From the NCBI RefSeq assembly GCF_044704955.1, contig NC_092010.1:38626001-38690000 (forward strand): a stretch of 64,000 nucleotides of DNA, read 5' to 3'. Both the position numbers and the translations under genes were made by a program. How positions within the stretch are numbered: position 1 is the stretch's first letter; every line of letters begins with the position of its first letter. The notes under the pieces are model-generated. The model was given only the letters and a program-made list of their open reading frames with translations, made no database searches and was not told where the DNA came from. Positions 6,001 through 56,452 of the stretch are shown here, piece by piece. The stretch comes from Pristiophorus japonicus (taxonomy: Eukaryota).

Positions 6001-9000
6001 CATGGGCTGTGGGAGGGGATTAAATGGGTGGGTAGGGTCAGTGATAGGTGAGTGTACATGGGCTGTGCGAGGGGATTAAATGGGTGGGTATAGTCAGTGA
6101 TAGGGGAGTGTACATGGGCTGTGGGAGGGGATTAAATGGGTGGGTAGGGTCAGTGATAGGGGAGAGTGCACATGGGCTGTGGGAGAGGATTAAATGGGTG
6201 GGTATAGTCAGTGATAGGGGAGTGTACATGGGCTGTGGGAGGGGATTAAATGGGTGGGTAGGGTCAGTGATAGGGGAGAGTGTGCATGGGCTGTGGGAGG
6301 CGATTAAATGGGTGGGTATAGTCAGTGATAGGGGAGTGTACATGGGCTGTGGGAGGGGATTAATTGGGTGGGTAGGGTCAGTGATAGGAGAGTGTAAATG
6401 GGCTGTCGGAGGCGATTAAATGGGTGGGTAGAGTCAGTGATAGGGGAGTGTGTACATGTGCTGGGGGAGGGGATTAAATGGGTGGGTACAGTCAGTGATC
6501 GGGGACTGTACATAGGCTATGGGAGGGGATTAAATGGGTGGGTAGGGTCAGTGATAGGGGATTGTGTACAGGGGCTGTGGGAGGGGATTAAATGGGTGGG
6601 TAGGGTCAGTGACAGGGGAGTGTGTACATGGGCTGTGGGAGGTGATTAAATGGGTGGGTACCGTCAGTGATAGGGGAGTGTGTACATGGGCTGTGGGAGG
6701 GGATTAAATGGGTGGGTAGGGTCAATGATAGGGGAGTGTGTACATGGGCTGTGGGAGGGGATTAAATGGGTGGATAGGGTCAGTGATAGGTGAGTGTGTA
6801 CATGGGCTGTGGGAGGTGATTAAATGGATGGGCAGGGTCAGTGATACGGGAATGTAGACATGGGCTGTGGGAGGTGATTAAATGGGTGGGTATAGTCAGT
6901 GATGGGGGAGTGTACATGGGCTGTGGGACGGGATTAAATGGGTGGGTAGGGTCAGTGATAGGTGAGTGTACATGGGCTGTGGGAGGGGATTAATTGGGTG
7001 GGTATAGTCAGTGATAGGGGAGTGTACATTGGCTGTGGGAGGGGATTAATTGGGTGGGTAGGGTCAATGATAGGGGAGTGGAAATGGGCTGTGGGAGGGG
7101 ATTAAATGGGTGGGTATAGTCAGTGATAGGGGAGTGTGTACATGTGCTGTGGGAGGGGATTAAATGGGTGGGTACAGTCAGTGATGGGGGAGTGTACATG
7201 GGCTGTGGGACGGGATTAAATGGGTGGGTAGGGTCAGTGATAGGTGAGTGTACATGGGCTGTGGGAGGGGATTAATTGGGTGGGTATAGTCAGTGATAGG
7301 GGAGTGTACATGGACTGTGGGAGGGGATTAATTGGGTGGGTAGGGTCAATGATAGGGGAGTGGAAATGGGCTGTGGGAGGGGATTAAATGGGTGGGTATA
7401 GTCAGTGATAGGGGAGTGTGTACATGTGCTGTGGGAGGGGATTAAATGGGTGGGTACAGTCAGTGATCGGGGAGTGTACATAGGCTGTGGGAGGGGAAAT
7501 AAATGGGTGAGTAGGGTCAGTGATAGGTGAGTGTACATGGGCTGTGGGAGGGGATTAAATGGGTGGGTAGGGTCAGTGATACGGGAGTGTGTACATGGGA
7601 TGTGGGAGGGGATTAAATGGGTGGGTAGGTTCAGTGATAGGGGAGAGTGTACATGGGCTGTGGGAGGGGATTAAATGGGTGGGTAGGGTCAGTGATAGGG
7701 GAGTGTGTACATGGGCTGTGGGAGGGGATTAAATGGTTGGGTCGGGTCAATGATAGTGGAGTGCACATGGGCTGTGGGAGGGGATTAAATAGGTGCGTAG
7801 GGTCAGTGATAGGGGAGAGTATACATGGGCTGTGGGAGGGGATTCAATGGGTGGTTAGGGTCAGTGATATGGAAGTGTACATTGTCTGTGGGAGGGGATT
7901 AAATGGGTGGGTAGGGTCAGTGATAGGGGAGAGTGCACATGGGCTGTGGGAGGGGATTAAATGGGTGGGTATAGTCAGTGATAGGGGAGTGTACATGGGC
8001 TGTGGGAGGGGATTAAATGGGTGGGTAGGGTCAGTGATAGGGGAGAGTGTACATGGGCTTTGGGAGGGGATTAAATAGGTGGGTAGGGTCAGTGATAGGA
8101 GATTGTGTACATGGGCTGTGGGAGGGGATTAAATGGGTGGGTAGGGTCAGTGATAGGGGAGAGTGTGTATGGGCTGTGGGAGGCGATTAAATGGGTGGGT
8201 ATAGTCAGTGATAGGGGAGTGTACATGGGCTGTGGGAGGGGATTAATTGGGTGGGTAGGGTCAGTGATAGGAGAGTGTAAATGGGCTGTCGGAGGGGATT
8301 AAATGGGTGGGTAGAGTCAGTGATAGGGGAGTGTGTACATGTGCTGGGGGAGGGGATTAAATGGGTGGGTGCAGTCAGTGATCGGGGACTGTACATAGGC
8401 TGTGGGAGGGGATTAAATGGGTGGGTAGGGTCAGTGATAGGGGAGTGTGTACAGGGGCTGTGGGAGGTGATTAAATGGGTGGGTACCGTCAGTGATAGGG
8501 GAGTGTGTACATGGGCTGTGGGAGGGGATTAAATGGGTGGGTAGGGTCAATGATAGGGGAGTGTGTACATGGGCTGTGGGAGGGGATTAAATGGGTGGGT
8601 AGGGTCAGTGATAGGGGTGTGTGTACATGGGCTGTGGGAGGTGATTAAATGGGTGGGTATAGTCAGTGATGGGGGAGTGTACATGGGCTGTGGGACGGGA
8701 TTAAATGGGTGGGTAGGGTCAGTGATAGGTGAGTGTACATGGGCTGTGGGAGGGGATTAATTGGGTGGGTATAGTCAGTGATAGGGGAGTGTACATGGGC
8801 TGTGGGAGGGGATTAATTGGGTGGGTAGGGTCAATGATAGGGGACTGGAAATGGGCTGTGGGAGGGGATTAAATGGGTGGGTATAGTCAGTGATAGGGGA
8901 GTGTGTACATGTGCTGTGGGAGGGGATTAAATGGGTGGGTACAGTCAGTGATCGGGGAGTGTACATAGGCTGTGGGAGGGGAAATAAATGGGTGGGTCGG

Positions 9001-12000
9001 GTCAGTGATAGGTGAGTGTCCATGGGCTGTGGGAGGGGATTTAATGGGTGGGTAGGGTCAGTGATAGGGGAGTGTGTACATGGGATGTGGGAGGGGATTA
9101 AATGGGTGGGTAGGGTCAGTGATAGGGGAGAGTGTGCATGGGCTGTGGGAGGCAATTAAATGGGTGGGTACAGTCAGTGATCGGGGACTGTACATAGGCT
9201 ATGGGAGGGGATTAAATGGGTGGGTAGGGTCAGTGATAGGGGATTGTGTACAGGGGCTGTGGGAGGGGATTAAATGGGTGGGTAGGGTCAGTGACAGGGG
9301 AGTGTGTACATGGGCTGTGGGAGGTGATTAAATGGGTGGGTACCGTCAGTGATAGGGGAGTGTGTACATGGGCTGTGGGAGGGGATTAAATGGGTGGATA
9401 GGGTCAGTGATAGGTGAGTGTGTACATGGGCTGTGGGAGGTGATTAAATGGATGGGCAGGGTCAGTGATACGGGAATGTAGACATGGGCTGTGGGAGGTG
9501 ATTAAATGGGTGGGTATAGTCAGTGATGGGGGAGTGTACATGGGCTGTGGGACGGGATTAAATGGGTGGGTAGGGTCAGTGATAGGTGAGTGTACATGGG
9601 CTGTGGGAGGGGATTAATTGGGTGGGTATAGTCAGTGATAGGGGAGTGTACATGGGCTGTGGGAGGGGATTAATTGGGTTGGTAGGGTCAATGATAGGGG
9701 AGTGGAAATGGGCTGTGGGAGGGGATTAAATGGGTGGGTATAGTCAGTGATAGGGGAGTGTGTACATGTGCTGTGGGAGGGGATTAAATGGGTGGGTACA
9801 GTCAGTGATCGGGGAGTGTACATAGGCTGTGGGAGGGGAAATAAATGGGTGAGTAGGGTCAGTGATAGGTGAGTGTACATGGGCTGTGGGAGGGGATTAA
9901 ATGGGTGGGTAGGGTCAGTGATACGGGAGTGTGTACATGGGATGTGGGAGGGGATTAAATGGGTGGGTAGGGTCAGTGATAGGGGAGAGTGTACATGGGC
10001 TGTGGGAGGGGATTAAATGGGTGGGTAGGGTCAGTGATAGGGGAGTGTGTACATGGGCTGTGGGAGGGGATTAAATGGTTGGGTAGGGTCAGTGATAGTG
10101 GAGTGCACATGGGCTGTGGGAGGGGATTAAATAGGTGCGTAGGGTCAGTGATAGGGGAGAGTATACATGGGCTGTGGGAGGGGATTCAATGGGTGGTTAG
10201 GGTCAGTGATATGGAAGTGTACATTGTCTGTGGGAGGGGATTAAATGGGTGGGTAGGTTCAGTGATAGGGGAGAGTGCACATGGGCTGTGGGAGGGGATT
10301 AAATGGGTGGGTATAGTCAGTGATAGGGGAGTGTACATGGGCTGTGGGAGGGGATTAAATGGGTGGGTAGGGTCAGTGATAGGGGAGAGTGTACATGGGC
10401 TTTGGGAGGGGATTAAATAGGTGGGTAGGGTCAGTGATAGGGGATTGTGTACATGGGCTGTGGGAGGGGATTAAATGGGTGGGTAGGGTCAGTGATCGGG
10501 GAGTGTGTACATGGGCTGTGGGAGGGGATTAAATGGGTGGGTAGGGTCAGTGATATGTGAGTGTACATGGGCTGTGGGAGGGGATTAAATGGGTGGGTAT
10601 AGTCAGTGATAGGGAAATGTGCACGTGGGCTGTGGGAGGGGATTAAATGGGTGGGTAGGGTCAGTGATAGGTGAGTGTACATGGGCTGTGGGAGGAGAGT
10701 AAATGAGTGGGTAGGGTCAGTGATAGGGGAGTGTGTACATGGGCTGTGGGAGGGGATTAAATGGGTGGGTAGGGTCAGTGATAGGGGAGAGTGCACATGG
10801 GCTGTGGGAGGGGATTAAATGGGTGGGTATAGTCAGTGATAGGGGAGTGTGTACGTGGGCTGTGGGAGGGGATTAAATGGGTGGGTAGGGTCAGTGATGG
10901 GGAGTGTGTACATGGGCTGTGGGAGGGGATTAAATGGGTGGGTATAGTCAGTGATAGCGGAGAGTGTACATGGGCTGTGGGAGGGGAGTAAATGAGTGGG
11001 TAGGGTCAGTGATAGGGGAGTGTGTACATGGGCTGTGGGAGGGGATTAAATGGGTGGGTAGGGTCAGTGACAGGGGAGTGTGTACATGGGCTGTGGGAGG
11101 GGATTAAATGGGTGGGTAGGGTCAGTGATAGGGGAGTGTACATGGGCTGTGGGAGGGGATTAAATGGCTGGGTAGGGTCAGTGATCGGGGAGTGTGTACA
11201 TGGGCTGTGGGAGGGGATTAAATGGGTGGGTAGGGTCAGTGATATGTGAGTGTACATGGGCTGTGGGAGGGGATTAAATGGGTGGGTATAGTCAGTGATA
11301 GGGGAGTGTGCACGTGGGCTGTGGGAGGGGATTAAATGGGTGGGTAGGGTCAGTGATAGGTGAGTGTACATGGGCTGTGGGAGGAGAGTAAATGAGTGGG
11401 TAGGGTCAGTGATAGGGGAGTGTGTACATGGGCTGTGGGAGGTGATTAAATGGGTGGGTAGGGTCAGTGATAGGGGAGTGTGTACATGGGCTGTGGGAGG
11501 GGAATAAATGGGTGGGTAGGGTCAGTGATGGGGAGTGTGTACATGGGCTGTGGGAGGGGATTAAATGGGTGGGTATAGTCAGTGATAGCGGAGAGTGTAC
11601 ATGGGCTGTGGGAGGGGAGTAAATGAGTGGGTAGGGTCAGTGATAGGGGAGTGTGTACATGGGCTGTGGGAGGGGATTAAATGGGTGGGTAGGGTCAGTG
11701 ATAGTGGAGTGTACATGGGCTGTGGGAGGGGATTAAATGGGTGGGTAGGGTCAGTTATACGGGAGAGTGTACATGGGCTGTGGGAGGGGATTAAATGGGT
11801 GGGTAGGGTCAGTGATAGGGAAGTGTCCATTGGCAGTGGGAGGGGATTAAATGGGTGGGTAGGGTCAGTGATAGGGGAGAGTGCACATGGGCTGTGGGAG
11901 GGGATTAAATGGGTGGGTATAGTCAGTGATAGGGGAGTGTGTACATGTGCTGGGGGAGGGGATTAAATGGGTGGGTGCAGTCAGTGATCGGGGACTGTAC

Positions 12001-15000
12001 ATAGGCTGTGGGAGGGGATTAAATGGGTGGGTAGGGTCAGTGATAGGGGAGTGTGTACAGGGGCTGTGGGAGGTGATTAAATGGGTGGGTACCGTCAGTG
12101 ATAGGGGAGTGTGTACATGGGCTGTGGGAGGGGATTAAATGGGTGGGTAGGGTCAATGATAGGGGAGTGTGTACATGGGCTGTGGGAGGGGATTAAATGG
12201 GTGGGTAGGGTCAATGATAGGGGAGTGTGTACATGGGCTGTGGGAGGGGATTAAATGGGTGGGTAGGGTCAGTGATAGGGGTGTGTGTACATGGGCTGTG
12301 GGAGGTGATTAAATGGATGGGTAGGGTCAGTGATACGGGAGTGTGGACATGGGCTGTGGGAGGTGATTAAATGGGTGGGTATAGTCAGTGATGGGGGAGT
12401 GTACATGGGCTGTGGGACGGGATTAAATGGGTGGGTAGGGTCAGTGATAGGTGAGTGTACATGGGCTGTGGGAGGGGATTAATTGGGTGGGTATAGTCAG
12501 TGATAGGGGAGTGTACATGGGCTGTGGGAGGGGATTAATTGGGTGGGTAGGGTCAATGATAGGGGACTGGAAATGGGCTGTGGGAGGGGATTAAATGGGT
12601 GGGTATAGTCAGTGATAGGGGAGTGTGTACATGTGCTGTGGGAGGGGATTAAATGGGTGGGTACAGTCAGTGATCGGGGAGTGTACATAGGCTGTGGGAG
12701 GGGAAATAAATGGGTGGGTCGGGTCAGTGATAGGTGAGTGTCCATGGGCTGTGGGAGGGGATTTAATGGGTGGGTAGGGTCAGTGATAGGGGAGTGTGTA
12801 CATGGGATGTGGGAGGGGATTAAATGGGTGGGTAGGGTCAGTGATAGGGGAGAGTGTGCATGGGCTGTGGGAGGCAATTAAATGGGTGGGTACAGTCAGT
12901 GATCGGGGACTGTACATAGGCTATGGGAGGGGATTAAATGGGTGGGTAGGGTCAGTGATAGGGGATTGTGTACAGGGGCTGTGGGAGGGGATTAAATGGG
13001 TGGGTAGGGTCAGTGACAGGGGAGTGTGTACATGGGCTGTGGGAGGTGATTAAATGGGTGGGTACCGTCAGTGATAGGGGAGTGTGTACATGGGCTGTGG
13101 GAGGGGATTAAATGGGTGGATAGGGTCAGTGATAGGTGAGTGTGTACATGGGCTGTGGGAGGTGATTAAATGGATGGGCAGGGTCAGTGATACGGGAATG
13201 TAGACATGGGCTGTGGGAGGTGATTAAATGGGTGGGTATAGTCAGTGATGGGGGAGTGTACATGGGCTGTGGGACGGGATTAAATGGGTGGGTAGGGTCA
13301 GTGATAGGTGAGTGTACATGGGCTGTGGGAGGGGATTAATTGGGTGGGTATAGTCAGTGATAGGGGAGTGTACATGGGCTGTGGGAGGGGATTAATTGGG
13401 TTGGTAGGGTCAATGATAGGGGAGTGGAAATGGGCTGTGGGAGGGGATTAAATGGGTGGGTATAGTCAGTGATAGGGGAGTGTGTACATGTGCTGTGGGA
13501 GGGGATTAAATGGGTGGGTACAGTCAGTGATCGGGGAGTGTACATAGGCTGTGGGAGGGGAAATAAATGGGTGAGTAGGGTCAGTGATAGGTGAGTGTAC
13601 ATGGGCTGTGGGAGGGGATTAAATGGGTGGGTAGGGTCAGTGATACGGGAGTGTGTACATGGGATGTGGGAGGGGATTAAATGGGTGGGTAGGGTCAGTG
13701 ATAGGGGAGAGTGTACATGGGCTGTGGGAGGGGATTAAATGGGTGGGTAGGGTCAGTGATAGGGGAGTGTGTACATGGGCTGTGGGAGGGGATTAAATGG
13801 TTGGGTAGGGTCAGTGATAGTGGAGTGCACATGGGCTGTGGGAGGGGATTAAATAGGTGCGTAGGGTCAGTGATAGGGGAGAGTATACATGGGCTGTGGG
13901 AGGGGATTCAATGGGTGGTTAGGGTCAGTGATATGGAAGTGTACATTGTCTGTGGGAGGGGATTAAATGGGTGGGTAGGGTCAGTGATAGGGGAGAGTGC
14001 ACATGGGCTGTGGGAGGGGATTAAATGGGTGGGTATAGTCAGTGATAGGGGAGTGTACATGGGCTGTGGGAGGGGATTAAATGGGTGGGTAGGGTCAGTG
14101 ATAGGGGAGAGTGTACATGGGCTTTGGGAGGGGATTAAATAGGTGGGTAGGGTCAGTGATAGGGGATTGTGTACATGGGCTGTGGGAGGGGATTAAATGG
14201 GTGGGTAGGGTCAGTGATCGGGGAGTGTGTACATGGGCTGTGGGAGGGGATTAAATGGGTGGGTAGGGTCAGTGATATGTGAGTGTACATGGGCTGTGGG
14301 AGGGGATTAAATGGGTGGGTATAGTCAGTGATAGGGAAATGTGCACGTGGGCTGTGGGAGGGGATTAAATGGGTGGGTAGGGTCAGTGATAGGTGAGTGT
14401 ACATGGGCTGTGGGAGGAGAGTAAATGAGTGGGTAGGGTCAGTGATAGGGGAGTGTGTACATGGGCTGTGGGAGGGGATTAAATGGGTGGGTAGGGTCAG
14501 TGATAGGGGAGAGTGCACATGGGCTGTGGGAGGGGATTAAATGGGTGGGTATAGTCAGTGATAGGGGAGTGTGTACGTGGGCTGTGGGAGGGGATTAAAT
14601 GGGTGGGTAGGGTCAGTGATGGGGAGTGTGTACATGGGCTGTGGGAGGGGATTAAATGGGTGGGTATAGTCAGTGATAGCGGAGAGTGTACATGGGCTGT
14701 GGGAGGGGAGTAAATGAGTGGGTAGGGTCAGTGATAGGGGAGTGTGTACATGGGCTGTGGGAGGGGATTAAATGGGTGGGTAGGGTCAGTGACAGGGGAG
14801 TGTGTACATGGGCTGTGGGAGGGGATTAAATGGGTGGGTAGGGTCAGTGATAGGGGAGTGTACATGGGCTGTGGGAGGGGATTAAATGGCTGGGTAGGGT
14901 CAGTGATCGGGGAGTGTGTACATGGGCTGTGGGAGGGGATTAAATGGGTGGGTAGGGTCAGTGATATGTGAGTGTACATGGGCTGTGGGAGGGGATTAAA

Positions 15001-16255
15001 TGGGTGGGTATAGTCAGTGATAGGGGAGTGTGCACGTGGGCTGTGGGAGGGGATTAAATGGGTGGGTAGGGTCAGTGATAGGTGAGTGTACATGGGCTGT
15101 GGGAGGAGAGTAAATGAGTGGGTAGGGTCAGTGATAGGGGAGTGTGTACATGGGCTGTGGGAGGTGATTAAATGGGTGGGTAGGGTCAGTGATAGGGGAG
15201 TGTGTACATGGGCTGTGGGAGGGGAATAAATGGGTGGGTAGGGTCAGTGATGGGGAGTGTGTACATGGGCTGTGGGAGGGGATTAAATGGGTGGGTATAG
15301 TCAGTGATAGCGGAGAGTGTACATGGGCTGTGGGAGGGGAGTAAATGAGTGGGTAGGGTCAGTGATAGGGGAGTGTGTACATGGGCTGTGGGAGGGGATT
15401 AAATGGGTGGGTAGGGTCAGTGATAGTGGAGTGTACATGGGCTGTGGGAGGGGATTAAATGGGTGGGTAGGGTCAGTTATACGGGAGAGTGTACATGGGC
15501 TGTGGGAGGGGATTAAATGGGTGGGTAGGGTCAGTGATAGGGGAGAGTGCACATGGGCTGTGGGAGGGGATTAAATGGGTGGGTATAGTCAGTGATAGGG
15601 GAGTGTGCATGGGCTGTGGGAGGGGATTAATTGGGTGGGTAGGGTCAGTGATAGGGGAGTGTAAATGGGCTGTGGGAGGGGATTAAATGGGTGGGTATGG
15701 TCAGTGATAGGGGAGTGTGTACATGGGCTGTGGGAGGGGATTAAATGGGTGGGTAGGGTCAGTGATAGGTGAGTGTACATGGGCTGTGGGAGGGGATTAA
15801 ATGGGTGGGTATGGTCAGTGATAGGGGAGTGTGTACATGGGCTGTGGGAGGGGATTAAATGGGTGGGTAGGGTCAGTGATAGGTGAGTGTGCATGGGCTG
15901 TGGGAGGGGAGTAAATGAGTGGGTAGGGTCAGTGATAGGGGAGTATGTACATGGGCTGTGGGAGGGGATTAAATGGGTGGGTATAGTCAGTGATAGGGGA
16001 GTGTGTACATGGGCTGTGGGAGGGGATTAAATGGGTGGGTCGGGTCAGTAACAGGGGAGTGTGTACATGGGCTGTGGGAGGGGACTAAATGGGTGGGTAT
16101 GGTCAGTGATAGGGGAGTGTACATGGGCTGTGGGAGGGGATTAAAAGGGTGGGTAGGGTCAGTGACAGGGGAGTGTGTACATGGGCTGTGGGAGGGGATT
16201 AAATGGGTGGGTAGGATCAGTGATAGGGGAGTGTGTACATGGGCTGTGGGAGGGC
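1..16255. repeat. Large G-rich tandem satellite, 56/58-bp unit (GGGCTGTGGGAGGGGATTAAATGGGTGGGTAGGGTCAGTGATAGGGGAGTGT[GT]ACAT), roughly 285 units, open at window start
   Basis: Continuous tandem repetition is directly visible. Unit length varies by a GT dinucleotide. Identical ORF translations recur at fixed offsets (3535 and 3722 bp). Confidence 0.99.
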
Positions 16256-16302
16256 ATTACATGGGAGGATAGGGATGGTGATACGGTGTAGTGTAGATGG
16301 AG

Positions 16303-21558: not shown

Positions 21559-22374
21559 ATGTCTTTGCCACGAACCCTTGGCGAGCTTCAGCTGTACCGT
21601 CTTCTCCAGAGGGCCAATCTCCTGGCATATTACGATACGTTCATTCAGCAGGGAGGGGATGACGTGAAGCAGCTCTGTGAGGCCGGAGAGGAGGAGTTCT
21701 TGGAAATCATGGCCTTGGTTGGCATGGCAACCAAACCTCTCCATGTCCGAAGGCTCCAAAAGGCCTTACGGGAGTGGATGGCCAACCCAGCCATTTTCAA
21801 CCAGCCTCTGGCCTCCGTTCCGGTCAGTAGCATCCCCCTATTTAAACTGTCAGGGGCATCTGCACAGGAGCCAAAGAGGAAGTCAGTCAGTAATGGCAGA
21901 GGCAATTCTCCTGAAATGCAAGCCAAACATCTGCAGAGTTTCGTCACAGCATCGGCAAGGAGCATCAGCCCGAACTCCTCATCTGATGGCGGGGAGAAGA
22001 ATTCCCCAGTGCAGATTTCCAGCGATGCCCCGGTTTGGCAAGGGTGGCACACGCCAGAGGCCGACACCAGCCTCACCGAGGAGGACCAAGTGCTCCCCCC
22101 ATCTCCCCGAGAGAACACGTGTAAACTGGACCTCGATACGGTCCGCACGATCGCAGAGAGTGTCAGGCACGTGATGAACACCTTCCCCAAAAGCGATCCC
22201 CAGGAAGCCAAGGAACTTTTGAGACTGAACAAGAAGCTAGCAAAATCCATTGGTCACATCTTCGAGATGGAGAAGCGTGATCCTGTAAAGGAGGAGGAAA
22301 TTCGGAAGTATAGTGCAATCTATGGGCGATCTGACTCCAAGCGCAGGGACAGCAAACAGCTGACACAGCACGAG
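21559..22374 (+). CDS. NAB2: NAB2 coding exon (exon 2; acceptor at 21537): NCD1 and most of NCD2
   Basis: MSLPRTLGELQLYRLLQRANLLAYYDTFIQQGGDDVKQLCEAGEEEFLEIMALVGMATKPLHVRRLQKALREW...LNKKLAKSIGHIFEM...EEEIRKYSAIYGRSDSKRR. Acceptor TCACAG|G, donor GAG|GTTGGG (phase 0). MATKP/REW residues favour NAB2 over NAB1. Confidence 0.97.
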
Positions 22375-25292: not shown

Positions 25293-25841
25293 TTCAGGTG
25301 TTCCAATTTTTCCTAGCGCCAAAACAGAGCCCTTACTTCTCGATCTTCGCTCAGCTCCAGCCTCAGTTACAGGCCTCTGTATTTATGGGCTAGTGAGGAG
25401 AAAGCGGCCAGGGGCCCTGCTTCCGCTCACTATCCAATGACTCCTGTTGGGAGACATTTGGATGTCAGGCGAGGACGTGATTGGGCTCAGCTGTGATGCT
25501 GCATACGGTCAAATAGCTGGCCAATGCTCACGATCTAGACTCAAAAACTAACACAGGACATGAGGAGAAGGTGACAAAGGGCACTTTGGCACTGTACCCC
25601 AGCAAGAGTCGTACAATCGGGGTGGGGGAATTCGATTTTTTTAAAAAAGGAATGCAGAGCAAATGGTTGCTCAAGGGTGCAGGATACCAGCAAGTATCAA
25701 AAGGCCTCCTCTCTCGCAGGGGAACAGCACTCTCTATTGGCTCGGACTGGCTGCCAGTTTCTAAAAGTACAATTCACTGCTCGTGCTGCCTCCTGTATGG
25801 GCTGGACTCTGAAGCACTCTCTGTTTCTAATCCTGTTTCAG

Positions 25842-25975
25842 CTGACGATCAATGAGGCGGCTGCTCAGTTTTGCATGGAAGATAACACCTTGCTGATGCG
25901 GAGAGTCGATCTCTTTTCACTGGCTAGACAGGTGGCTCGAGAGTGCGCTTACACTTGTACTTACAGGAAAACACG
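25842..25975 (+). CDS. NAB2: NAB2 exon 3 (end of NCD2)
   Basis: TTTCAG|CTG; [45 protein letters not shown]; CG|GTAAG; phase 0 to 2. Confidence 0.97.
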
Positions 25976-26284
25976 GTAAGATTCCAGGTACCCTGTTGTA
26001 CTATTGTGTACAGACCAGCTGGGTTTCTTCAATTCTAAATGCTGTGAGTTATTTCAATATCAAGTTCTTCTGTGACAGTCTGAGGGTTATTATAGGGTGC
26101 ACTGTGGTGGACTTAGTCTCTTGCCTCTCGTCCGATAGATCCCAGCTCTACTCCCTGTTCCGTGCCGATTCAGTTGAACTCAGCTATGGTGGAGGTTCGG
26201 ACACTACAATCTGCCTCAGTGCCCCTGGGCGAGGGAGAGGGGATCCCTGCTGGCAAGTATGCACACGTGGCTAGGATCAAGCAA

Positions 26285-26954: not shown

Positions 26955-28658
26955 CTACAGTGTCGGGGTTTGGGGAAGTACAGTGTCAGGGTTTGGGGCG
27001 GTACAGTGTCAGGGTTTGGGGAAGTACAATGTCAGGGTTTGGGGAAGTACAGTGTCAGGGTTTGGGGCGGTACAGTGTCAGGGTTTGGGGAGGTACAGTG
27101 TCAGGGTTTGGGGCGGTACAGTGTCAGGGTTTGGGGAAGTACAATGTCAGGGTTTGGGGAAGTACAGTGTCAGGGTTTGGGGAAGTACAGTGTCAGGGTT
27201 TGGGGCGGTACAGTGTCAGGGTTTGGGGAGGTACAGTGTCAGGGTTTGGGGCGGTACAGTGTCAGGGTTTGGGGCGGTACAGTGTCAGGGTTTGGGGAGG
27301 TACAGTGTCAGGGTTTGGGGAGGTACAGTGTCAGGGTTTGGGGCGGTACAGTGTCAGGGTTTGGGGAAGTACAGTGTCAGGGTTTGGGGAAGTACAGTGT
27401 CAGGGTTTGGAGTGTCAGGGTTTGGGGAGGTACAGTGTCAGGGTTTGGGGAAGTACAGTGTCAGGGTTTGGGGAGGTACAGTGTCAGGGTTTGGGGAAGT
27501 ACAGTGTCAGGGTTTGTGGAAGTAGTGTCAGGGTTTGGGGTATCAGGGTTTGGAGAGGTACAGTGTCAGGGTTTGGGGAGGTACAGTGTCAGGGTTTGGG
27601 GAGGTACAGTGTCAGGGTTTGGGGAAGTACAGTGTCAGGGTTTGGGGTATCAGGGTTTGGGGAGGTACAGTGTCAGGGTTTGGGGTATCAGGGTTTGGGG
27701 AAGTACAGTGTCAGGGTTTGGGGAAGTACAGTGTCAGGGTTTGGGGAGGTACAGTGTCAGGGTTGGGAGTGTCAGGGTTTGGGGAGGTACAGTGTCAGGG
27801 TTTGGGGAGGTACAGTGTCAGGGTTTGGGGCGGTACAGTGTCAGGGTTTGGGGAAGTACAGTGTCAGGGTTTGGGGAAGTACAGTGTCAGGGTTTGGGGA
27901 GGTACAGTGTCAGGGTTTGGGGAAGTACAGTGTCAGGGTTTGGGGAGGTACAGTGTCAGGGTTTGGGGAAGTAGTGTCAGGGTTTGGGGTATCAGGGTTT
28001 GGGGAGGTACAATGTCAGGGTTTGGGGAAGTACAGTGTCAGGGTTTGGGGTATCAGGGTTTGGGGAGGTACAGTGTCAGGGTTTGGGGTATCAGGGTTTG
28101 GGGAAGTACAGTGTCAGGGTTTGGGGAAGTACAGTGTCAGGGTTTGGGGTATCAGGGTTTGGGGAAGTACAGTGTCAGGGTTTGGGGAGGTACAGTGTCA
28201 GGGTTTGGGGAGGTACAGTGTCAGGGTTTGGAGTGTCAGGGTTTGGGGAGGTACAGTGTCAGGGTTTGGGGAGGTACAGTGTCAGGGTTTGGGGAAGTAC
28301 AGTGTCAGGGTTTGGAGTGTCAGGGTTTGGGGAGGTACAGTGTCAGGGTTTGGGGAAGTACAGTGTCAGGGTTTGGAGTGTCAGGGTTTGGGGCAGTACA
28401 GTGTCAGGGTTTGGGGAGGTACAGTGTCAGGGTTTGGGGAGGTACAGTGTCAGGGTTTGGGGAAGTATAGTGTCAGGGTTTGGAGTGTCAGGGTTTGGGG
28501 AGGTACAGTGTCAGGGTTTGGGGAGGTACAGTGTCAGGGTTTGGGGAGGTACAGTGTCAGGTTTTGGAGTGTCAGGGTTTAGGGAGGTACAGTGTCAGGG
28601 TTTGGGGAAGTACAGTGTCAGGGTTTGGAGTGTCAGGGTTTGGGGCGGTACAGTGTCA
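26955..28658. repeat. 23-bp G-rich minisatellite (TACAGTGTCAGGGTTTGGGGA[A/G]G and variants) filling NAB2 intron 4
   Basis: Directly visible tandem units, with shorter variant units (GGAGTGTCAGGGTTT, GGGGTATCAGGGTTT) in the 3' half. Confidence 0.98.
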
Positions 28659-33357: not shown

Positions 33358-35152
33358 TATTGCAGTACTTGCGCTGGAAGCTTGTACATGGGATATCTCA
33401 GAGTGTGTTACAAGATGTCCCCTTTTAGACAGGAGAGCCACGCTCGAAGGGTTTATCAACATCAATTGAGCTAAGTTACTAACTGGAACCACCTACACAC
33501 AGACCCTCCTCCCCCTCCATGCAATTCTTTCCCCCTTCTCCTGATGATTTTGCTCAAGTTCCCCCCAACCTCTTCTACGTTACTTGAGTGACACATTCTT
33601 TATGTGCGAACCTGGACAAGGTGTGTCAGTAGGTATCGGAGCCAGTTCCGATCCTGTCCTCACTTCCCGCACCTGCACCTTTTCAGTGAGATCTCTGTGG
33701 GAGTGGATACTTAGAGCGTCCTGGCCCCTATGGTTCAGTTCACACTTGGCTGTGCGCTTACCGATTGAATTGCCCATTGGTTACAGGAACATTAACTAAT
33801 ATTTTAGAGAGCAGGGCTAGTGATGCATAGCTTTGGCATACAGTGGAATATGATGATATATTGAGTTGTGCAAAGACAACTCTCAAGGTAGAAGTGACCC
33901 AGACGATGAAGTGAAACAAAATAATAATCGTCTGTCGATCTGGAGTCTCCTCGTTTACATCAGTGTGAATAGTCAATATCCCCGAACATCTATTTCAGTT
34001 TGTTTTACATCTGCAAATGTTCCAGATCCCATTTCAATTCGTTAATTTATTTAAGGAAACAAATTGAGATTTTTTCTTCACGGATATGATGCCAAGCTAA
34101 CAGTGGAGGCATTGTGTGAAATGAAAGGTCTGTGACTCAATGAGTAATAAACCAAAGAAACAAATGCTGTCAATTTCACCATCTGCCTCATTCAGTTTCA
34201 GCCTCTGCTTTATCTTGGTACAGAATAGGAGTTTGGATGCTTGTGTTTCTATTTTTTTTAATTGTTGTGGGGGAAGATGTAAATGTTTTAATCCCGCAAC
34301 CACATGTTGACTGAGAGATTGGCGTCATGTTTCTGTGATTCCTTTGTTTGTTCATGTGTTTCCACTGCAGGATGGATTCGGAGTGCCAATTGAGACATAA
34401 CTGAGCCTGCACAGTTGTTCGGAAGTTGCAATTGCAACTTTCTGTTACTGGCTGTAGACCTTCCCTAATGTTAGCCGGGGGGGGGGGGGGGGGGGGTGGC
34501 GGAAGAGGTCTGGACACACCAGCAGAATGTAAACTGCATTGCTGGATTGTGCAGGATCAGCTGAGGACTCAGCCCATATCGGATGGGCCCAGTGCTTGGC
34601 CTGTACCTAATGTATGGCTGAGTTGAGAGCTCAACTTGTCCACAAATTTTGCAGTCGAGTATCCCGCATTTGGGGACATCAGTACACCCGAAGTGCAATG
34701 GGCTAGCCTTGTCCTGGGAGAACCACTTTCTTGATCATGGTTACTCCCCTGTCAGGTATCCAGGCCAAAATGGTGGCAGGTGCCGTATGTTTGCTCCCAC
34801 AGGGATACACCATCTCTTGTGGTGGGGGTGGGGAGGTCTGTGCTGCCAGATGCTCTGGGACCACTAGTGTAGTGCTACCTCCAGAGGCAAGTTGTAATAT
34901 AAATGTGATGTTGGTCCCGCTCTCCAAGCTCCCAAAGCACAACCCCCTCTACCAGTTATATCTTAAACAGGCGCTGTCTTGATGAAAAAGTGCGTTGCAA
35001 AAGTAATTTTCTTGTACGAAGAGACGCGGGGCATCCAGCACATGATTTATGTCAACGGGTGGGATTTAAAAAAAACATATTTTCATGAAGACCGTTAAAG
35101 TGAGAGACAATCTGTGAGACCACATGGACGGTTCATGAAGGAGGCTCACCAC

Positions 35153-38004: not shown

Positions 38005-38202
38005 GTATATTTTAGAATTTATTTGTGGTGGTCTCCTTGTATCTGGGCAAGGACAGTTCCATTAAAAATGTTCACTCTTATCAGAGGTCACAAGTTTAAA
38101 TCAATTATTAAAATATACAGAGACTAGAGCTCCCCTGAAGGCTCTGTGGTAAATGTACCCCTGTGTGTGGTGCTAAGTCACACAGAGCAGGAAGCTCCCT
38201 GG

Positions 38203-38612
38203 TCATTGGAATTCAGAAGAATGAGAGGTGATCTTATCGAAACGGATCAGATTATGAGGGGGCTTGACAAAGTGGATACAGAGAGGATGTTTCCACTGAT
38301 AGGGGAGACTAGAACTAGGGGGCATAATCTTAGAATAAGATTTAAAACTGAGATGAGGAATTTTTTCTCTCAGAGGGTTGTAAATCTGTGGAATTCGCTG
38401 CTTGAGAGAGCTGTGGAAGCTGGGTCATTGAATAAATTTAAGACAGAGATAGACAGTTTCTTAACCGATAAGGGATTAAGGGGTTATGGGGAGCGGGCAG
38501 GGAAGTGGAGCCGAGTCCATGATCGGATCAGCCATGATCGTATTAAATGGTGGAGCAGGCTCGAGGGGCCGTATGGCCTACTCCTGCTCCTTTCTTATCT
38601 TATGTTCTTATG
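38203..38612 (+). mobile_element. CR1 LINE 3' fragment
   Basis: SLEFRRMRGDLIETDQIMRGLDKVDTERMFPL...FFSQRVVNLWNSL; TTCTTATG tail. Confidence 0.93.
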
Positions 38613-46684: not shown

Positions 46685-47001
46685 GTATCTTTTGGATGAG
46701 ACATTAAACCGAGGCCCCATCAGCCCTCTCAAATGGATGTAAAAGATTCCACGCCCACTATTTTGAAGAAGAGCAGGGGAGTTATCCCCGGTGTCCTGGC
46801 CAATATTTATCCCTCAATCAACATAACAAAAACAGATTATCTGGTCATTATCACATTGCTGTTTGTGGGAGCTTGCGCAAATTGGCTACATTACAACAGT
46901 GACTACACGTCAAAAAGTACTTCATTTTCTGTAAAGCGCTTTGGAATAACCGGAGGTTGTGAAAGGTGCTATAGAAATGCAAGTCTGTCTTTCTTTCTTT
47001 G
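46685..47001 (+). mobile_element. Deu-domain SINE 3' half
   Basis: GATGAGACATTAAACCGAGGCCCC...GAAGAAGAGCAGGGGAGTTATCCCCGGTGTCCTGGCCAATATTTATCCC...ATAGAAATGCAAGTCTGTCTTTCTTTC. Confidence 0.88.
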
Positions 47002-47344
47002 AATGCAAAACAATTTTCCATTTTTTTTTTTGAAGAGCATCAATACTGAGGAACTGACATCATAAAAAGATGCCTCGTATCATAAATAGCGAATAACCTT
47101 TCCAAGGTACACAGCTGGCATCTGGTGGCAGTAAATAGAACTGCAATCATTCTTTTCTTATATTTTGGGGATTACCCAAACTCAACTGCAAATAATTTCC
47201 AAGTAAATTTGCAATAATGATGTCCAGTTATTCTTTGTGTCGGAACACACATCCAGTATCAACACCAGCTTAATGGATAGTGGCGCCTACATTAACAACA
47301 GCTGGCAAACCTGAAACATACCCAACATAAAACAAAAACAACCC

Positions 47345-47480
47345 ATAATGGCTCAGTTGGTAAATGTATGCCCATTATGAAATAAACCACATAGACCAGG
47401 AAGGAGACAGGTTCCATCCCTGGTCTGTGCTGAGTCAGTCAGATCTCTGCCAGGACAGCAGTAACGCCTTAGGGTTGGGC
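47345..47480 (+). mobile_element. Degenerate tRNA-derived SINE head (host sequence of the snRNA-retroposon insertions)
   Basis: TGGCTCAGTTGG (A box) ... CAGGTTCCATCCCTGGTCTGTGCTGAGT (B-box-like). Similar degenerate pieces at ~38620, ~55230 and ~34550. Confidence 0.5.
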
Positions 47481-47494
47481 GTCAGTGTCAGAGT

Positions 47495-47725
47495 GGTGGG
47501 GTGGCTTGACCCATCCACCTCCACGGAGGTGTGTGGGGGACCTGACCCATCCACCTCCATGGCACGAACCTGGTATTGCAGTACTTCCAGGAACGGTGCA
47601 CTGGCTCTAGGCCTTTTGGCTAAGAGCATTGGCGCAGAGTGATCCTTGGCGTGTGCAAGGTGACCTCTGGCGTTTGTGATTTGACAAAGAATTGGAACGA
47701 TTGGCTACGAATTTCAAAAAAAAAA
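47495..47725 (+). mobile_element. 5'-truncated U2-derived poly(A) retroposon (copy 1)
   Basis: U2 3' stem-loop ACCTGGTATTGCAGTACTTCCAGGAACGGTGCAC, then a U2 5'-stem copy GGCCTTTTGGCTAAGA, unique 3' region and A10. Flanked by GTCAGTGTCAGAGT on both sides (47481-94, 47726-39). Confidence 0.88.
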
Positions 47726-47739
47726 GTCAGTGTCAGAGT

Positions 47740-48060
47740 CACTGTTCGGCCTTTTGGCTAAGATCATGCGTAACTGACCTGACAGGGGAGTAGCCACCAT
47801 AACCCCAAGGTGGTTCTCCCTGGATCAGGAAGGTATATGCTTGCTTTTTTGGAAATAGGAGGTGTGTGGGGGGCCTGACCCATCCACCTCCATGGCACGA
47901 ACCTGGTATTGCAGTACTTCCAGGAACGGTGCAGTGGCTCTAGGCCTTTTGGCTAAGAGCATTGGCGCAGAGTGATCCTTGAATGGGCCCAAGGTGACCT
48001 CTGGCGTTTGTGATTTGACAAAGAATTGGAACGATTGGCTACGAATTTCAAAAAAAAAAA
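47740..48060 (+). mobile_element. Apparently full-length chimeric U2/U1 snRNA-derived SINE-like retroposon (copy 2)
   Basis: TCGGCCTTTTGGCTAAGATCA (U2 nt ~9-29); then ACTGACCTGACAGGGGAG...AAGGTGGTTCTCCC (U1 5' domain-like); then TTTTTTGG Sm-like site + U2 stem-loops III/IV; then a second U2 stem I; then 3' region, A11 and GTCAGTGTCA. Confidence 0.88.
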
Positions 48061-48078
48061 GTCAGTGTCAAAGAGTAT

Positions 48079-48438
48079 GAAAGAAAGAAAAATACTTGGA
48101 TTTATATAGCGCCTTTCACAACCACTGGACGTCTCAAAGTGCTTTACAGCCAATGAAGTACTTTTTGGATTGTAGTCACTGTTGTAATGTGGAAAACGCA
48201 GCAGCCAATTTGCACACAGCAAGCTCCCATAAACAGCAATGTGATAATGACCAGATAATCTGTTTTTTGTTATCGGTTCATTATCACATTGCTGTGTGTG
48301 GGAGTTTGCTGTGCGCAAATTGGTGTTTCCCACATTACAACAGTGACTACACTCCAAAAAATGCTTCATTGGCTGTAAAGCACCATAGGACATCCTGATG
48401 TCGTGAACGGCGCTATAGAAATGCAAGTTCTTCCTTTC
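48079..48438. mobile_element. Two Deu-SINE 3' fragments in inverted orientation (48079-48268 minus; 48277-48438 plus)
   Basis: ...CAGCAATGTGATAATGACCAGATAATC on the left mirrors CATTATCACATTGCTG... on the right; both SINE tails point outward. Confidence 0.85.
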
Positions 48439-49184
48439 TACTGGCCATTTGGATATGTACCCCAGCAAAGGAGTCAGCACCTTCAAAAGAAGAATGAGGA
48501 GAAAAATTGAGGGGTGGGATTTTTCAGTAAATCAAATCTGGGGAAAGAATAAAATAAGACATGTTGTATTATCCACAATCTCAGACTGTTATTCTCAGCT
48601 TTTTTTACAAGCTGGAAAGGTTTTCAGCATTCACAATGTAAGAATAGGTTTTGTGCCTTAAACAGTAAGTGCAAATGGAAATATAAAATATTAGCTACGT
48701 CACCAATACAGAAAACAATCGACAGTCAGACAGCATTAATGACAGTGAACAAACACCCTGTTTATATGACTGTATAAGCCCCCAGAAAACCAACATATTT
48801 AGGATTATGATTTCATAATATGTACAGTGGATTACAAATACTGTGACACTACATTATGTAATTTGAGGCTAATCAAGAGTTACTTCCATGGAATCTATGG
48901 AGGGCATAATTTTAGGCAGCCATATTGAAGCATGTTAACTCCTATAAGCGTATGTAACAGCACAGGTTGAAACAGGCCATTTGTAGATCATGCTTTTGCA
49001 TCCAACTCAGAGTTGCTATGGATAAGTGTAGACTGAGATAATGGAGGAAAGAGGGGGAAGGGAATGTTGTCTGTGCAGGGCAGCAAGCCAAGGTTGAATA
49101 ATTGAAATATGAAGATGGATGTATATTCTGGATTGGATTACCTTTAGGGATCAGTGAGTATTTATACAGAACTTCCCCTCATGA

Positions 49185-49452
49185 GATTAACTGGGTGGGG
49201 AGAGTCCGTGATAGAGGAGTGTACATGGGCTGTGGGAGGAGATTAAATGGGTGGGTAGGGTCAGTGATAGGGGAGTGTACATGGGCTGTGGGTGGGGATT
49301 AAATAGGTGGGTAGAGTCAGTGATAGGGGAGTGTGTACATGGGCTGTGGGAGGGGATTAAATGGGTGGGTAGGGTCAGTGATAGGGGAGTGTACATGGGC
49401 TGTGGGAGGAGATTAAATGGGTGGGTAAAGTCCTTGATAGGGGTGAGTGTAC
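49185..49452. repeat. Orphan short array (~4.5 units) of the 56/58-bp satellite
   Basis: Same unit and orientation as 1-16255. Confidence 0.95.
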
Positions 49453-50325: not shown

Positions 50326-53263
50326 GGGCTGTAACCTCCACTTTTGTGCTTATTGCCCAAAAATGGGCGTTATTTCCGGCGTGGGCAGTAAAAAAGGGTT
50401 TTCAGATCACCGGCTTCTCGCCCATTCCCAAAGCACCTAGTCTCCATTTTTGAAAATGGGCATTACCAAGAGCGATATGAAATGGGCGGTAGCGTTAAAT
50501 TTTTTTGACCTTCTGCTGTAAAGTGTGGCCGCCCTTAGCAACGGCATGGCAACGCTTGATTCCTGCGATTCTGGAGGTCAAGGGTCACCATGACATGTGC
50601 AGAATAGGAGAGAGAGAGAGAGCGAGAGAGAGGGAGCTCAGAGGCACTGAAAGCGTGTGTGGCTGTGGTGTGTGCTTGTTTGGCTGTTGTGGGAGGCATG
50701 AGGGAGATTCACCAGCAGCGAAAAGCCTACTATGCACCAAGAACATAGATGGCACTGAGTTTTTGTCCAACAAATAAGATACAACATGGAAGCGATGGTG
50801 GAGGTCCTGGAGCTGGTAGCCAGGAACACTGGTGGCAGAGGGCTCCCAGTGGTCCCAGAGCGCTGCACTGCACCCCAAGATGCCGCACCCCCATTGCCAA
50901 CCACACGAGAGCCAGCAGCAACATCTTGCTTCTGGCTCAGAGCACGTTCCCACCTCGGGACTGTCCTCTCCTGTATCCGTCCAAGCAGCAGTTCAGCCGT
51001 CATTACCCCCACACCCCCCCGACACCAACCCCCCCCCCCCAACCACCCCCTCCACACCCCCCAATGAAGCATCGCCTGAGGAACTCCTCGGCCAGACGGC
51101 TTGGAGTCAGGAGGGGAAGGGGTAGAGATGGGGGGGGCGGGGGAAGGGCTGGTTTGTACAGAAATACTGATGATTTCAGACTAATGTTCGGTTTAAATGT
51201 TTTTTTATTTAACAAAACCTTGTTGCGCATTGGCTCAGAGAGGTGCACCGTTACACGCTGGTGATTTCTTTACATCAAAGCGTATAATGACACTTATCTT
51301 CAATCAACTTAAACTTTAACTGTCACCAAGGTGATGCCCACCATTGATGTATAACCTGCACACCCAGCAGTGTGTCAGCCTTGTAAATAACACCAACGTT
51401 CTTTCAGGCAAAGCGATCATTGATGAGCTCCTGACGCAAGGCTCTTGCAGCTATCATGCCACCATGGGCTCTTTCATGCGGTCTACAGGGGGCCGGGGGA
51501 TGGCTTCAGCATCAGCCTGATTGTCTGGGCCGATATCAGCGTCCACCTCCTCATTCTCCTCTTCCTCTCTCTGGTGAGGTGGACTATCAGACTCATCAAG
51601 CAATTCTTGCCCCCTCCTGATAGCCAAGTTGTGCAGTATGGAGCACACCACCACGAATTGAGCTACCTGCTCAGGGGGATATTGGAGCTCGCCTCCTGAG
51701 TGGTCCAGGCATTTAAAGCACTGCTTCAGCACTCCAATGGTTTTCTCCATAATATTATAAGTTGCTCTGTGGCTCTCTTTGTACCGCCTCTCGGCTTCGG
51801 TGTGGGTGTCACACAGGGGGGTCATCAGCCAGGTGGCGAGGCCATATCCTTTGTCATCAAGCATCCAGCATTGATCTTGTGGCTGATTGTTAAACAAGTC
51901 AGATACAGTGCTCTCACGCAGGATGTGAGCATCATGGATGCTGCCCAGAAATTGAGTATTCACTGCCAGTATAATTTGCTGGTGGTCGACGAGTTGGACA
52001 TTCAGGGAGTGGAATCCCTTGCGGTTCCTGAAAACCTCTACATCCTGAAAAGGTGCCCGCATCACGATGTGCGTACAGTCTATTGCTCCCTACACCTTGG
52101 GGAAGTTTGCAATTCTGGAGAATCCTAGAGCCCTCTCACTCTGTGCCTCCCTGGTCATAGGGAAGCTGATCAAGTCCCTCCTGCGTGTGTACAGGGCTTC
52201 AGTGACCTGTCCAATGCAGCGATGTGTGGCATGCTGAGAAAGTCCACAAATGTCTCCAACTGTGGCCTGAAAAGAACCCGAGGCATAGAACGACAGTGCT
52301 GCGGTGACTTTGACCTCGACGCACAGTGCAGTACTGATGGTGCTGGCAGGCTGCAGATCTGCCCTTATAAGCTGGCATACTTCAGTGATAACCTCTTTGT
52401 GGAAGCACATCTCCGAAGGCAGGTGTTGTCAGGCAAGTCGAGGTAAGAATACTTCTCCTTGTACTTGCAGGGGGTGTAACATCTGGTCCTCCTCATCAGT
52501 CTGTCACGTCTTACATTGGGCACATAATGCAGTGGAGCGTTCCTTCGGCGATGTCGAGTCTGCTGCATGTAATTGGTCACCAAGAGAGAGTGAGAAAAGA
52601 CAGGCCCCATTTGCAATAGCTCTCTGTTTTCCACCGATTGGTCACAAACAACGAATGTCCCTACGAAGACACCTATTCAATTCCAATTGGTCACTGTATG
52701 GTCAAGATGTTTGTAGAGATGTTCACATCAACTCCAACGACCTGCAGAGTACATCCGAACTCCGCCGAGGTTGAAGCACAGCAGCCTTTTAAAGGATGCG
52801 ACATGTGATCTAGAACATGGCATCCATAACGCTGTGATTAGTTCCGCTTAGTTGCACTTTTTCTGGGCGTTTTTTTGGGCGAGCGATATTGTGGGCGATG
52901 TGCGCGAGGTGGTGAAATTGACGCTGGGCGATCTCATGGCTGCTAGTTTCGGTAAATATGCTCTTTACGACAAAAAACAGTGGGCGGAGCGTTAAATCAG
53001 TGCGGAAAGTAACGCTGGGAGATATGGGCGTTGATTTCGCCCATTCTGATGATTCTGCCCCAAAGAATTGGGCGGGCGGTAATATTTTTTCCCTGCGTTA
53101 AGCACATGAGGAAAGTAACGCTCGGCAATAAGTTTCTGAAAAATGCCCGCCAGTTTCTATTTTGTGCCAAAATGGGCGATATATGGGTGTTATATGTCAT
53201 TTCAGTGGTAAAATGGGCGTTAAATGGGCGTTAAGCATGCAAAAAAAGTGGAGGTTCTAGCCC
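50326..53263 (-). mobile_element. PIF/Harbinger DNA transposon, defective (~2.94 kb)
   Basis: TIR GGGCTGTAACCTCCACTTTT vs revcomp GGGCTAGAACCTCCACTTTT (18/20). 3-bp ATA on both flanks. Subterminal TGGGCG repeats. Confidence 0.95.
51454..52634 (-). pseudogene. Disrupted Harbinger (HARBI1-like) DDE transposase
   Basis: ALSFYASGSFQATVGDICGLSQ...FPKV*GAIDCTHI...FRNRKGFHSLNVQ...GSIHDAHIL...LDDKGY...IMEKTIGVLKQCFKCL. Frameshift near 52400 and stop at 52090. Confidence 0.92.
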
Positions 53264-54927: not shown

Positions 54928-56452
54928 CTGCTTTGCCGAAGAAAGAAAAGTATTAGACAGGTAATGTAACGAGACAAGCTTATCACATGGATACAAACAC
55001 TAAGAACCTGGAGTATGAATGCAAAGCTTTGAGAATATAACCCCCTATTTAATGTTCAAAATACTGCAATCTGTTACAGCCCTGGCACTGTGCATCAGTT
55101 ACTCGCTTGTGCCTATGAATACCCACACAAGAGTTCATGATCTTGGGCATGGAAGTTAGATATGTCCAAGAGGGAGAGAGTTACTCTAGCTACCAGTGTA
55201 TCCCAATGAGCAGCGAAAGGGAGGCATTGGGTTCCCTTGATTGCTCAGTAGGTAATGATACCTTGTGCGATACTGAGGCATACAAACCAAGAGAGTTTCA
55301 GGATTGATGCCTGGTCTCGGTCTGTACTGTTAGTTGATCGCAAGCTTGCGAGTTAAGTCAGTATCCAGTGAGCCCTGCTGGAGAGCGTATATGCATGGAT
55401 GAGGGCAGGGTTGGGCTCAACGTGGTGTCCTTCACAGTCAGCGCTTTTGACGGCACGCACTGTCTAGGCTCTTGTATGAAAAATGGCCTTTATCAATATG
55501 GCGGGTGACGCACTTCTGGCGTGGAATGTGCGGGCACACATGCGGCCTGTAAAATGGGCGCGGTGTCGACTAATTTCTAGGCCCATTTTTCTATTAGAGT
55601 TACCGTTGGAGGCAACAAGATCTGGAGGTATCATGAGGTGAGTTTCCAATGAGCACTGCGAGACAACACTCTGCCGGCAGCAAACAAAAACAGGAGTCCT
55701 TGCAGATGAGCCGGGGTCTTGGCCTGTACTGTTAGTGCGGACATTTGGGAAGGTCTGTGGCCAGAAACAAATGCAACTTTTTAAGCAACAGTACCTGTGT
55801 GATCTTGCACAAGTGATGTTTCAACATTGCTGACAGAGCACTGAATCTGTGCTGTAATATCAGGGCAAATTCAAAAGGACCAACACTCCAGCAGCCTTTG
55901 ATAAATTGCAGAACTACACGAGAATATAGGCATGCTGCAAGTCAAAGACATGGGACTGGATTTCTCTCTTTGGGGCAGAGTGGACTTCTGCTGTGGCTCC
56001 AACCCATTTTCCTGGGTCAAGGGTCACTTATCATGCAGAGCAGGATTCCTGGCGCTGCTAACAAGGAAAATTGGGCAGTGCTGCTGGAGCACCCAAGAGA
56101 CGTTAAAGGAGCAGAAAAATCCCAAAGTAGTGAGCTACTAGTTTTGTATGCCAACAAAGGTACGTGCATGGGGCCAAGTTGGAGGGAGAGAAGATCCCCA
56201 ATTAAGCCATCTTCCTCCATCTACAGAAATCTGGCAGAGGTGCAGGGAGGGAAATGGAGCTGAGGGTGGGGAGGCATGGCTTCACTGCCCATTTCAGGAA
56301 GAATCACAGAGAAAAATCCAGCCCAATGTGTTGCATTAATATCAGAGCAAAGTTATAAACTCCATAAATTAGATTCAAGGTTCTTAACTGTGAAAAGAAC
56401 TAAATCCAATCAGGTCACAGACCAAAGCTATATCTTTAGAAACAGAACTGAC

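Follow-up and report, generated by a model that had tools for sequence, protein, structure and literature searches.

A 64-kb stretch of shark DNA (the whole stretch analysed, called the window below) contains a poly(A)-tailed mosaic of small nuclear RNA pieces. The element consists of U2 nt 1-35, a 5' part of U1, the 3' half of U2, a second U2 5' piece, and an 88-nt tail. It is present twice, with a short target-site repeat before, between, and after the two copies (Table 1), and three sequence variants of it are present at the locus. We are confident that the two copies arose by independent, RNA-mediated insertions. Our best overall reading, which we think is probably correct for this one locus, is that two SINEU-like elements were inserted here one after the other, with sequence-directed re-cutting of the same site by a Tx1-type endonuclease.

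Table 1. Features of the locus, with positions in the window.
Feature	Position	Strand	Remarks
Left flank: head of an old SINE-like repeat (tRNA type)	47342..47480	+	Target site at the repeat's end
Target-site repeat 1	47481..47494	+	14 nt, GTCAGTGTCAGAGT
Copy 1, 5' extension: U2 stem-loop III region, third variant	47495..47524	+	About 30 nt, by alignment
Copy 1, body, 5'-truncated	47525..47715	+	U2 3' part to 47601; second U2 5' piece 47606-47625; hairpin loop 47649-47655
Copy 1, A10 tail	47716..47725	+	
Target-site repeat 2	47726..47739	+	14 nt, GTCAGTGTCAGAGT, identical to repeat 1
Copy 2, head: U2 snRNA nt 1-35	47738..47772	+	Rfam U2; 29/35 identical to human U2 by eye
Copy 2, U1 snRNA 5' piece, about nt 3-57	47773..47829	+	Stem-loop I retained; by eye, matches human U1 nt 3-20 at 16/18
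Copy 2, U2 3' half, about nt 83-186	47830..47934	+	47830-45 degenerate; region of the Sm site begins at 47846; stem-loops III (remodelled) and IV
Copy 2, second U2 5' piece: nt 7-26 in Rfam; by eye, extending to about nt 29	47939..47961	+	Rfam 15.1 bits, E 0.27
Copy 2, 88-nt tail with hairpin	47962..48049	+	Variable loop 47982-47989
Copy 2, A11 tail	48050..48060	+	
Target-site repeat 3	48061..48076	+	10-mer GTCAGTGTCA at 48061-70, then AA, then GAGT
Right flank: 3' tail, ending in (TTTC)n, of an old interspersed repeat, opposite orientation	48080..48200	-	4 further copies in the window, 78-84%

The element and its surroundings

Copy 2 is the full copy, with 312 nt (47738-48049) plus its A11. 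The Rfam model for U2 matches 47738-47939 (53 bits, with a cut-off of 46; E 1.1e-7), with model position 1 at 47738. This is the only Rfam match at gathering score in the 64 kb. Comparisons to human snRNAs were made by eye, using reference strings from an excerpt of a preprint (bioRxiv 10.1101/2021.08.01.454689). Within the U2 3' half of copy 2, 47846-47861 is a 16-nt exact run with human U2; in copy 1, 47568-47601 is identical to 34 nt of human U2. The second U2 5' piece of copy 2 is identical to the first U2 head at 19 of 20 positions, and the corresponding piece of copy 1 matches Rfam U2 positions 7-26. The U1 piece is weak in Rfam alone (E 0.65). When it was aligned to a U1-like copy elsewhere in the window (34616-34763), the score was 62, versus 21.8±3.7 for shuffled sequences, and none of 2000 shuffles was as good. 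By eye, the U1-U2 junction lies near a pentamer common to both RNAs (nt 53-57 in U1, nt 78-82 in U2), as expected after a template switch.

Parts of the element still fold. Stem-loop I of U1 has a z of -3.56, the remodelled stem-loop III of U2 has a z of -2.33, and the whole copy has a z of -4.52. The element is non-coding: its reading frames have stops, and the longest open stretch (78 aa) is on the minus strand. Copy 2 contains T runs at 47752 (T4), 47845 (T6), and 47947 (T4). We found no match in copy 2 to consensus patterns for the pol III A and B boxes, and a tRNA scan reported 0 genes. A functional U2 snRNA gene, which would have an uninterrupted U2 with stem-loop II and the branch-point recognition region and would lack poly(A), is ruled out: nt 36 to about 78 are replaced by the U1 piece, and there is an A-tail and target-site duplications (TSDs).

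The U1-like copy at 34616-34763 is on the minus strand, 13 kb from the element. (Its Rfam score is 63.9 bits, with a cut-off of 69.5.) Its likeness to U1 ends after the Sm site, and no A-tail or TSD was found for it. It has variant bases in common with the element's U1 piece.

The 88-nt tail contains exact matches to other snRNAs: 12 nt to U6 (48024-35), 11 nt to antisense U4 (48034-44), and 10 nt to human U12 (47990-99). Among 300,000 random targets of 1260 nt, a 12-mer was found in 2645, a 12-mer plus an 11-mer in 92, and all three in 10, in a test with a uniform null that was set up after the matches had been noticed. In the tail region, Rfam called only the short U2 piece, with no call for U6, U4, or U12. 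We treat these likenesses as a lead only. The region 48024-48044 can also be described as a degenerate tandem of 9-10 nt, so a chance match is possible there. By eye, 47958-47974 resembles the 5' end of U4. The tail's hairpin (47965-48008) has a 4x4 internal loop whose tandem G-A oppositions are conserved between the copies, unlike the apical loop; overall, the tail folds no better than shuffles (z of -0.02 and 0.05). We rejected the tail as a further piece of U1 (1172 and 1381 of 2000 shuffles were equally good), and we set aside Rfam matches to a prion pseudoknot and to miRNAs, which were below the cut-off.

The target adjoins two old repeats (Table 1). Either one might be a source of many targets. 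The left-flank repeat aligns with 55200-55560 (score 69.9) and with 38090-38260 (score 60.2), and none of 500 shuffles was as good in either case. For two other paralogs, 1 and 23 of 500 shuffles were as good. By nhmmer, the left-flank repeat gave E values of 0.009-0.015. The left flank also contains, at 47349, an A-box-like motif, going by a consensus pattern. On the right, the old repeat's 3' part occurs twice in inverted orientation (48080-48440), which forms a long palindrome with arms that are 85-89% identical. Further copies of this repeat are at 46828-47000, 36440, and 31415.

The rest of the window contains a 57-58-bp satellite (8-16274; about 285 units; GC skew of about 0.77), with a short copy at 49183-49452, and a 23-bp minisatellite (26956-28628). 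A broken relic of a DDE_Tnp_4 transposase is at 51457-52428 on the minus strand (Pfam E 1.3e-29); we take this relic to be of the Harbinger type. There are also two plus-strand exons of NAB2 (21559-22371 and 25827-25976), which encode the NCD1 and NCD2 domains. The first of these is 100% identical over 271 aa to NAB2 from Pristiophorus japonicus, and the next five matches are from other sharks (71-80%); a search among longer proteins reached no more than 67%. We take the window to be sawshark DNA.

Two probable insertions at one site

The first-pass annotation described three repeats, two copies, and two A-tails, and when we re-read the junction repeats, the A10, and the A11, all of them were at those positions. 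The third repeat is longer than it had been drawn. Its 10-mer at 48061-70 stands, but the repeat continues with AA-GAGT to 48076, so that it is the 14-mer of the other two repeats with two additional A's. The 10-mer has three exact matches on both strands of the 64 kb, and all three are at these junctions; if up to one mismatch is allowed, there are 13 matches, including these three. At any one position, the 10-mer would match by chance with a probability of 9.7e-7, and the 14-mer with a probability of 4.3e-9. The end of repeat 2 overlaps the U2 head by 2 nt (U2 positions 1-2), so the length of the TSD is uncertain (10-16 nt).

The copies themselves are very similar. By blastn, they are 95.4% identical over 216 nt. 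The shared bodies (47525-47715 and 47858-48049) differ at 8 of 193 columns, and six of these eight differences are within one hairpin loop (47649-55 versus 47982-89). Such clustering was matched by just 1 of 1,000,000 random placements. Elsewhere, only 2 of 185 columns differ, which is 99% identity. With its intact repeats and A-tails as well, the element looks young. We considered a microinversion of the loop, and rejected it because the two loops are not reverse complements.

Copy 1 had been described as truncated. This holds for its body, but the body is preceded by an additional, diverged copy of U2 stem-loop III (47495-47524). This extension differs from copy 2 at 4 of 35 columns and from the body of copy 1 at 5 of 35 (binomial P of 5.5e-4, given the background of 2/185). 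By eye, it also has U2-like bases at two positions where neither body has them. Given these bases, and a divergence that exceeds the one between the two copies, the extension is not from a recent local duplication. Thus, the proposal of two separate retro-insertions is supported by several features: the clustered change in the loop, the different 5' ends, the extension from a third variant, the pure A-tails, and the three junction repeats.

We then considered the target site. The bases immediately to the left of repeat 1 are GGGTTGGGC, without an A-tract, so the left site is not TT/AAAA. This agrees, for the left site, with the earlier claim that the target is not of the L1 type. The A-rich start of the TSD that an L1-type nick gives is absent there as well.

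We propose two successive insertions, from different source copies, both by target-primed reverse transcription and both starting from the same nick in the bottom strand. The first insertion would most likely have been the full-length copy 2. The left-hand site, regenerated and without an A-tract, would then have been cut again by the same endonuclease, and the 5'-truncated copy 1 would have gone in upstream, copying repeat 2 into repeat 1. It is simplest for copy 2 to be first because repeat 1 is the same as repeat 2 while repeat 3 differs. (We have modest confidence in this order, whose basis is one 2-nt indel.) If copy 1 was second, at a left site without an A-tract, then the re-cutting would have been directed by sequence.

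The start of copy 2 has some oddities. Its first 8 nt (47738-47745) match the start of the target repeat at 7 of 8 positions, and 47728-47744 folds into a small hairpin. This likeness may reflect target sequence that was brought along from the source locus, or repair of the junction.

A poly(A) tail together with a long TSD is typical of the L1/Tx1 group, and the enzyme would most likely be the ORF2 of a Tx1-clade LINE with a sequence preference. An endonuclease with such a preference is plausible by analogy, as it fits the precedent of SINEU-3 from crocodilians and a report on the whale shark, an excerpt of which (PMC8455134) describes Tx1 as present and full L1 as absent. No RT or APE domain from Pfam was found in the 123 of 162 window ORFs that we scanned (at least 75 aa and outside of arrays); the only matches in these ORFs were the NAB2 domains, the DDE_Tnp_4 relic, and one match to Dam below the cut-off.

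Most of the near-matches to the 14-mer (64 of 70) are in the two satellite arrays, with 57 in 26956-28628 and 7 in 1-16274, and there is no insertion in either array. (The unit of the 23-bp minisatellite matches the target core at 11 of 12 positions.) This suggests that the core motif is not sufficient by itself, or else that copies are few. No further copies of the element were found elsewhere in the 64-kb window by blastn or nhmmer, so within the window, a single locus accounts for both copies and the third variant. As a proxy for genome-wide searches, we compared translations of the copies to proteins. The minus-strand frame of 78 aa gave 9 matches in protein sets (37-56% identity; 8 of the 9 were in several short stretches), which we judged to be due to chance. 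For a 40-aa frame, proteins of 71-2000 aa included no candidate. A caveat is that this proxy covered 2 of 6 frames and is a weak test. A plasmid collection had no match to the element. From this one locus (n=1), we infer that cutting is sequence-directed, that the enzyme is of the Tx1 clade, and that there is a wider family in the genome.

Alternative explanations

First, there could have been two independent insertions with no sequence preference. Copy 1 would have been inserted first, and copy 2 would have been primed at a nick in copy 1's A-tail. Such a nick would be at a T-rich, L1-like site, and the TSD would take in some of the A's plus the 12-14 nt behind them. A nick within A10 is compatible with an L1-type site and would yield the identical final sequence, and L1-mobilised SINEs are known to re-insert at the A-tail and TSD. 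But the two top-strand cuts would need to lie only 0-2 nt apart, with the AA in repeat 3 arising later. Also, copy 1 would still have gone into a site without an A-tract, and the whale shark is described as lacking full L1 (PMC8455134, in excerpt). We consider this scenario unlikely.

Second, a single insertion might have been followed by duplication of the DNA, via unequal exchange between the TSDs. The head of copy 1 would then have been deleted, and the sequence remodelled by gene conversion or template switching. Exchange between TSDs does yield the arrangement of repeat, copy, repeat, copy, repeat. The 99% identity of the copies outside of the loop would be expected, and there is a GAG microhomology at the 5' junction of copy 1. 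However, at least three further events would have to fit within the time of 2 substitutions per 185 nt: loss of the head exactly at the TSD, a diverged internal duplicate with U2-like bases, and replacement of the loop. This makes a duplication quite improbable.

Third, both copies might derive from a single retrotransposition, either of read-through RNA from a tandem source or by a template jump between two RNAs, so that the middle repeat was carried by RNA. Transcription of SINEU from upstream flanks, and 5' extensions that include target sequence, have been described (PMC4494074, in the excerpted text). But the middle repeat equals the local left repeat at 14 of 14 nt. An imported repeat would match only if the source and the new site share a target, which again implies a target preference. 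We give this explanation little credence.

Finally, it is very doubtful that these are one-off chimeric retrocopies of snRNAs with no SINE family behind them. In favour of one-off copies, no further copy was seen in the window or by the proxy protein searches, and the window has another U1-like retrocopy at a distance of 13 kb. But both copies have the same chimeric junctions, the same tail, and the same remodelled stem-loop III, which, along with the three variants, requires a replicating master.

Two SINEU-like insertions, with re-cutting of one site, remain our preferred reading.

Relationship to SINEU families and to U2-linked retrotransposons

SINEU elements have heads derived from U1 or U2 and a poly(A) tail, and in the excerpted text of Kojima 2015 (PMC4494074), none were detected outside of crocodilians. 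The same excerpts describe SINEU as lacking the pol III A and B boxes and as having internal oligo-T, and leave open how they are transcribed without an internal promoter. The four features of the class that we tested are all found in the shark element: a head derived from U1 and U2, poly(A), a non-coding sequence of less than 500 bp, and oligo-T without A or B boxes. On the basis of sequence, it probably works like the crocodilian SINEU.

One of the most similar families is SINEU-3. It has a U2 5' piece of about 32 nt, a later U2 piece, an unrelated 3' part, and poly(A), and its tandems sandwich a TSD. In the excerpts of PMC4494074, these tandems are read as sequential insertions that were mobilised by Tx1-Mar. 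Unlike SINEU-3, the shark element has a U1 piece in the gap in U2, a second U2 5' piece, an 88-nt tail, and 312 nt in all, and its target repeat does not resemble the SINEU-3 TSD. SINEU-3 itself (an internally deleted U2 without U1, a 3' part of about 40 nt, and a TSD in Mariner-N4_AMi) is thus ruled out by the U1 piece and the different TSD. SINEU-2 joins a 5' U1 to a 3' U2 at positions 53-58, and the shark U1-U2 junction is near U1 nt 53-57 (by eye). Extensions at the 5' end that come from another subfamily are known for SINEU-2 (PMC4494074, in excerpt). As SINEU-2 contains only those two parts, it is ruled out by the extra U2 head, the second U2 piece, and the 88-nt tail. In SINEU-1C/H, U2 is stacked on U1, which is stacked on a unit of short U2 plus a unique 3' part, comparable to the shark modules. 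Going by the text descriptions in these excerpts, no described SINEU family combines all of the shark modules.

We also compared the locus to Keno and Tx1-Mar (from the Tx1 clade) and to Utopia, which are site-preferring non-LTR elements with ties to U2. Keno and Utopia cut U2 at nt 38/39 (PMC4640811, PMC6136364; excerpts), and both of the shark U2 heads stop just short of this site, at nt 29-35. But the target repeat does not resemble the Keno 3' flank in register (by eye), and the locus is not a U2 gene. A Keno-type insertion into U2, with a 3' flank of U2 from nt 39, is ruled out by this comparison of the flanks by eye. The target repeat is not a mimic of the Keno site either: the part of U2 that it resembles (nt ~25-38) lies upstream of the nick, and a 3' flank would be expected to start at nt 39.

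We offer a broader interpretation tentatively, as a possibility that we consider rather unlikely. Sharks would have a young, possibly active family of the SINEU class, with an origin apart from the crocodilian ones (or else with a shared Tx1 partner that moved horizontally). It would be aimed by Tx1 at a new target that is not A-rich. It would have borrowed the pol II promoter of U2 by insertion at the Keno site in U2 genes, since neither head quite reaches nt 38/39 and copy 2 begins with U2 nt 1. And its tail would include pieces like U6, U12, and antisense U4. If there is a young shark family, then snRNA-headed SINEs arose at least twice, or they moved between aquatic vertebrates. The transcription start, the type of cap, and the partner endonuclease could then be tested on elements that might still be active. 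A new Tx1 target would also extend the short list of retrotransposon endonucleases with sequence preferences.

Our literature search turned up no title on an snRNA-derived SINE from a shark; Repbase, Dfam, or SINEBase may have an entry. There is no shark case in the excerpted portions of PMC5786205, PMC7245038, PMC3747384, PMC4758252, or PMC5381603. Within this literature, a SINEU-like element from a shark, with its own module order and its own target, appears to be undescribed. In a study of dimers of transposable elements (McGurk and Barbash, 10.1101/158386; excerpt), double insertion is recognised from 5' truncations that differ between the units and from a TSD where they join. The dimers described there are of autonomous elements from Drosophila, without an snRNA origin. 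The mechanism of tandem re-insertion, as put forward in the first-pass annotation, is already published for SINEU, and the origin of the shark element from snRNAs, which that annotation does not name, is the more interesting fact.
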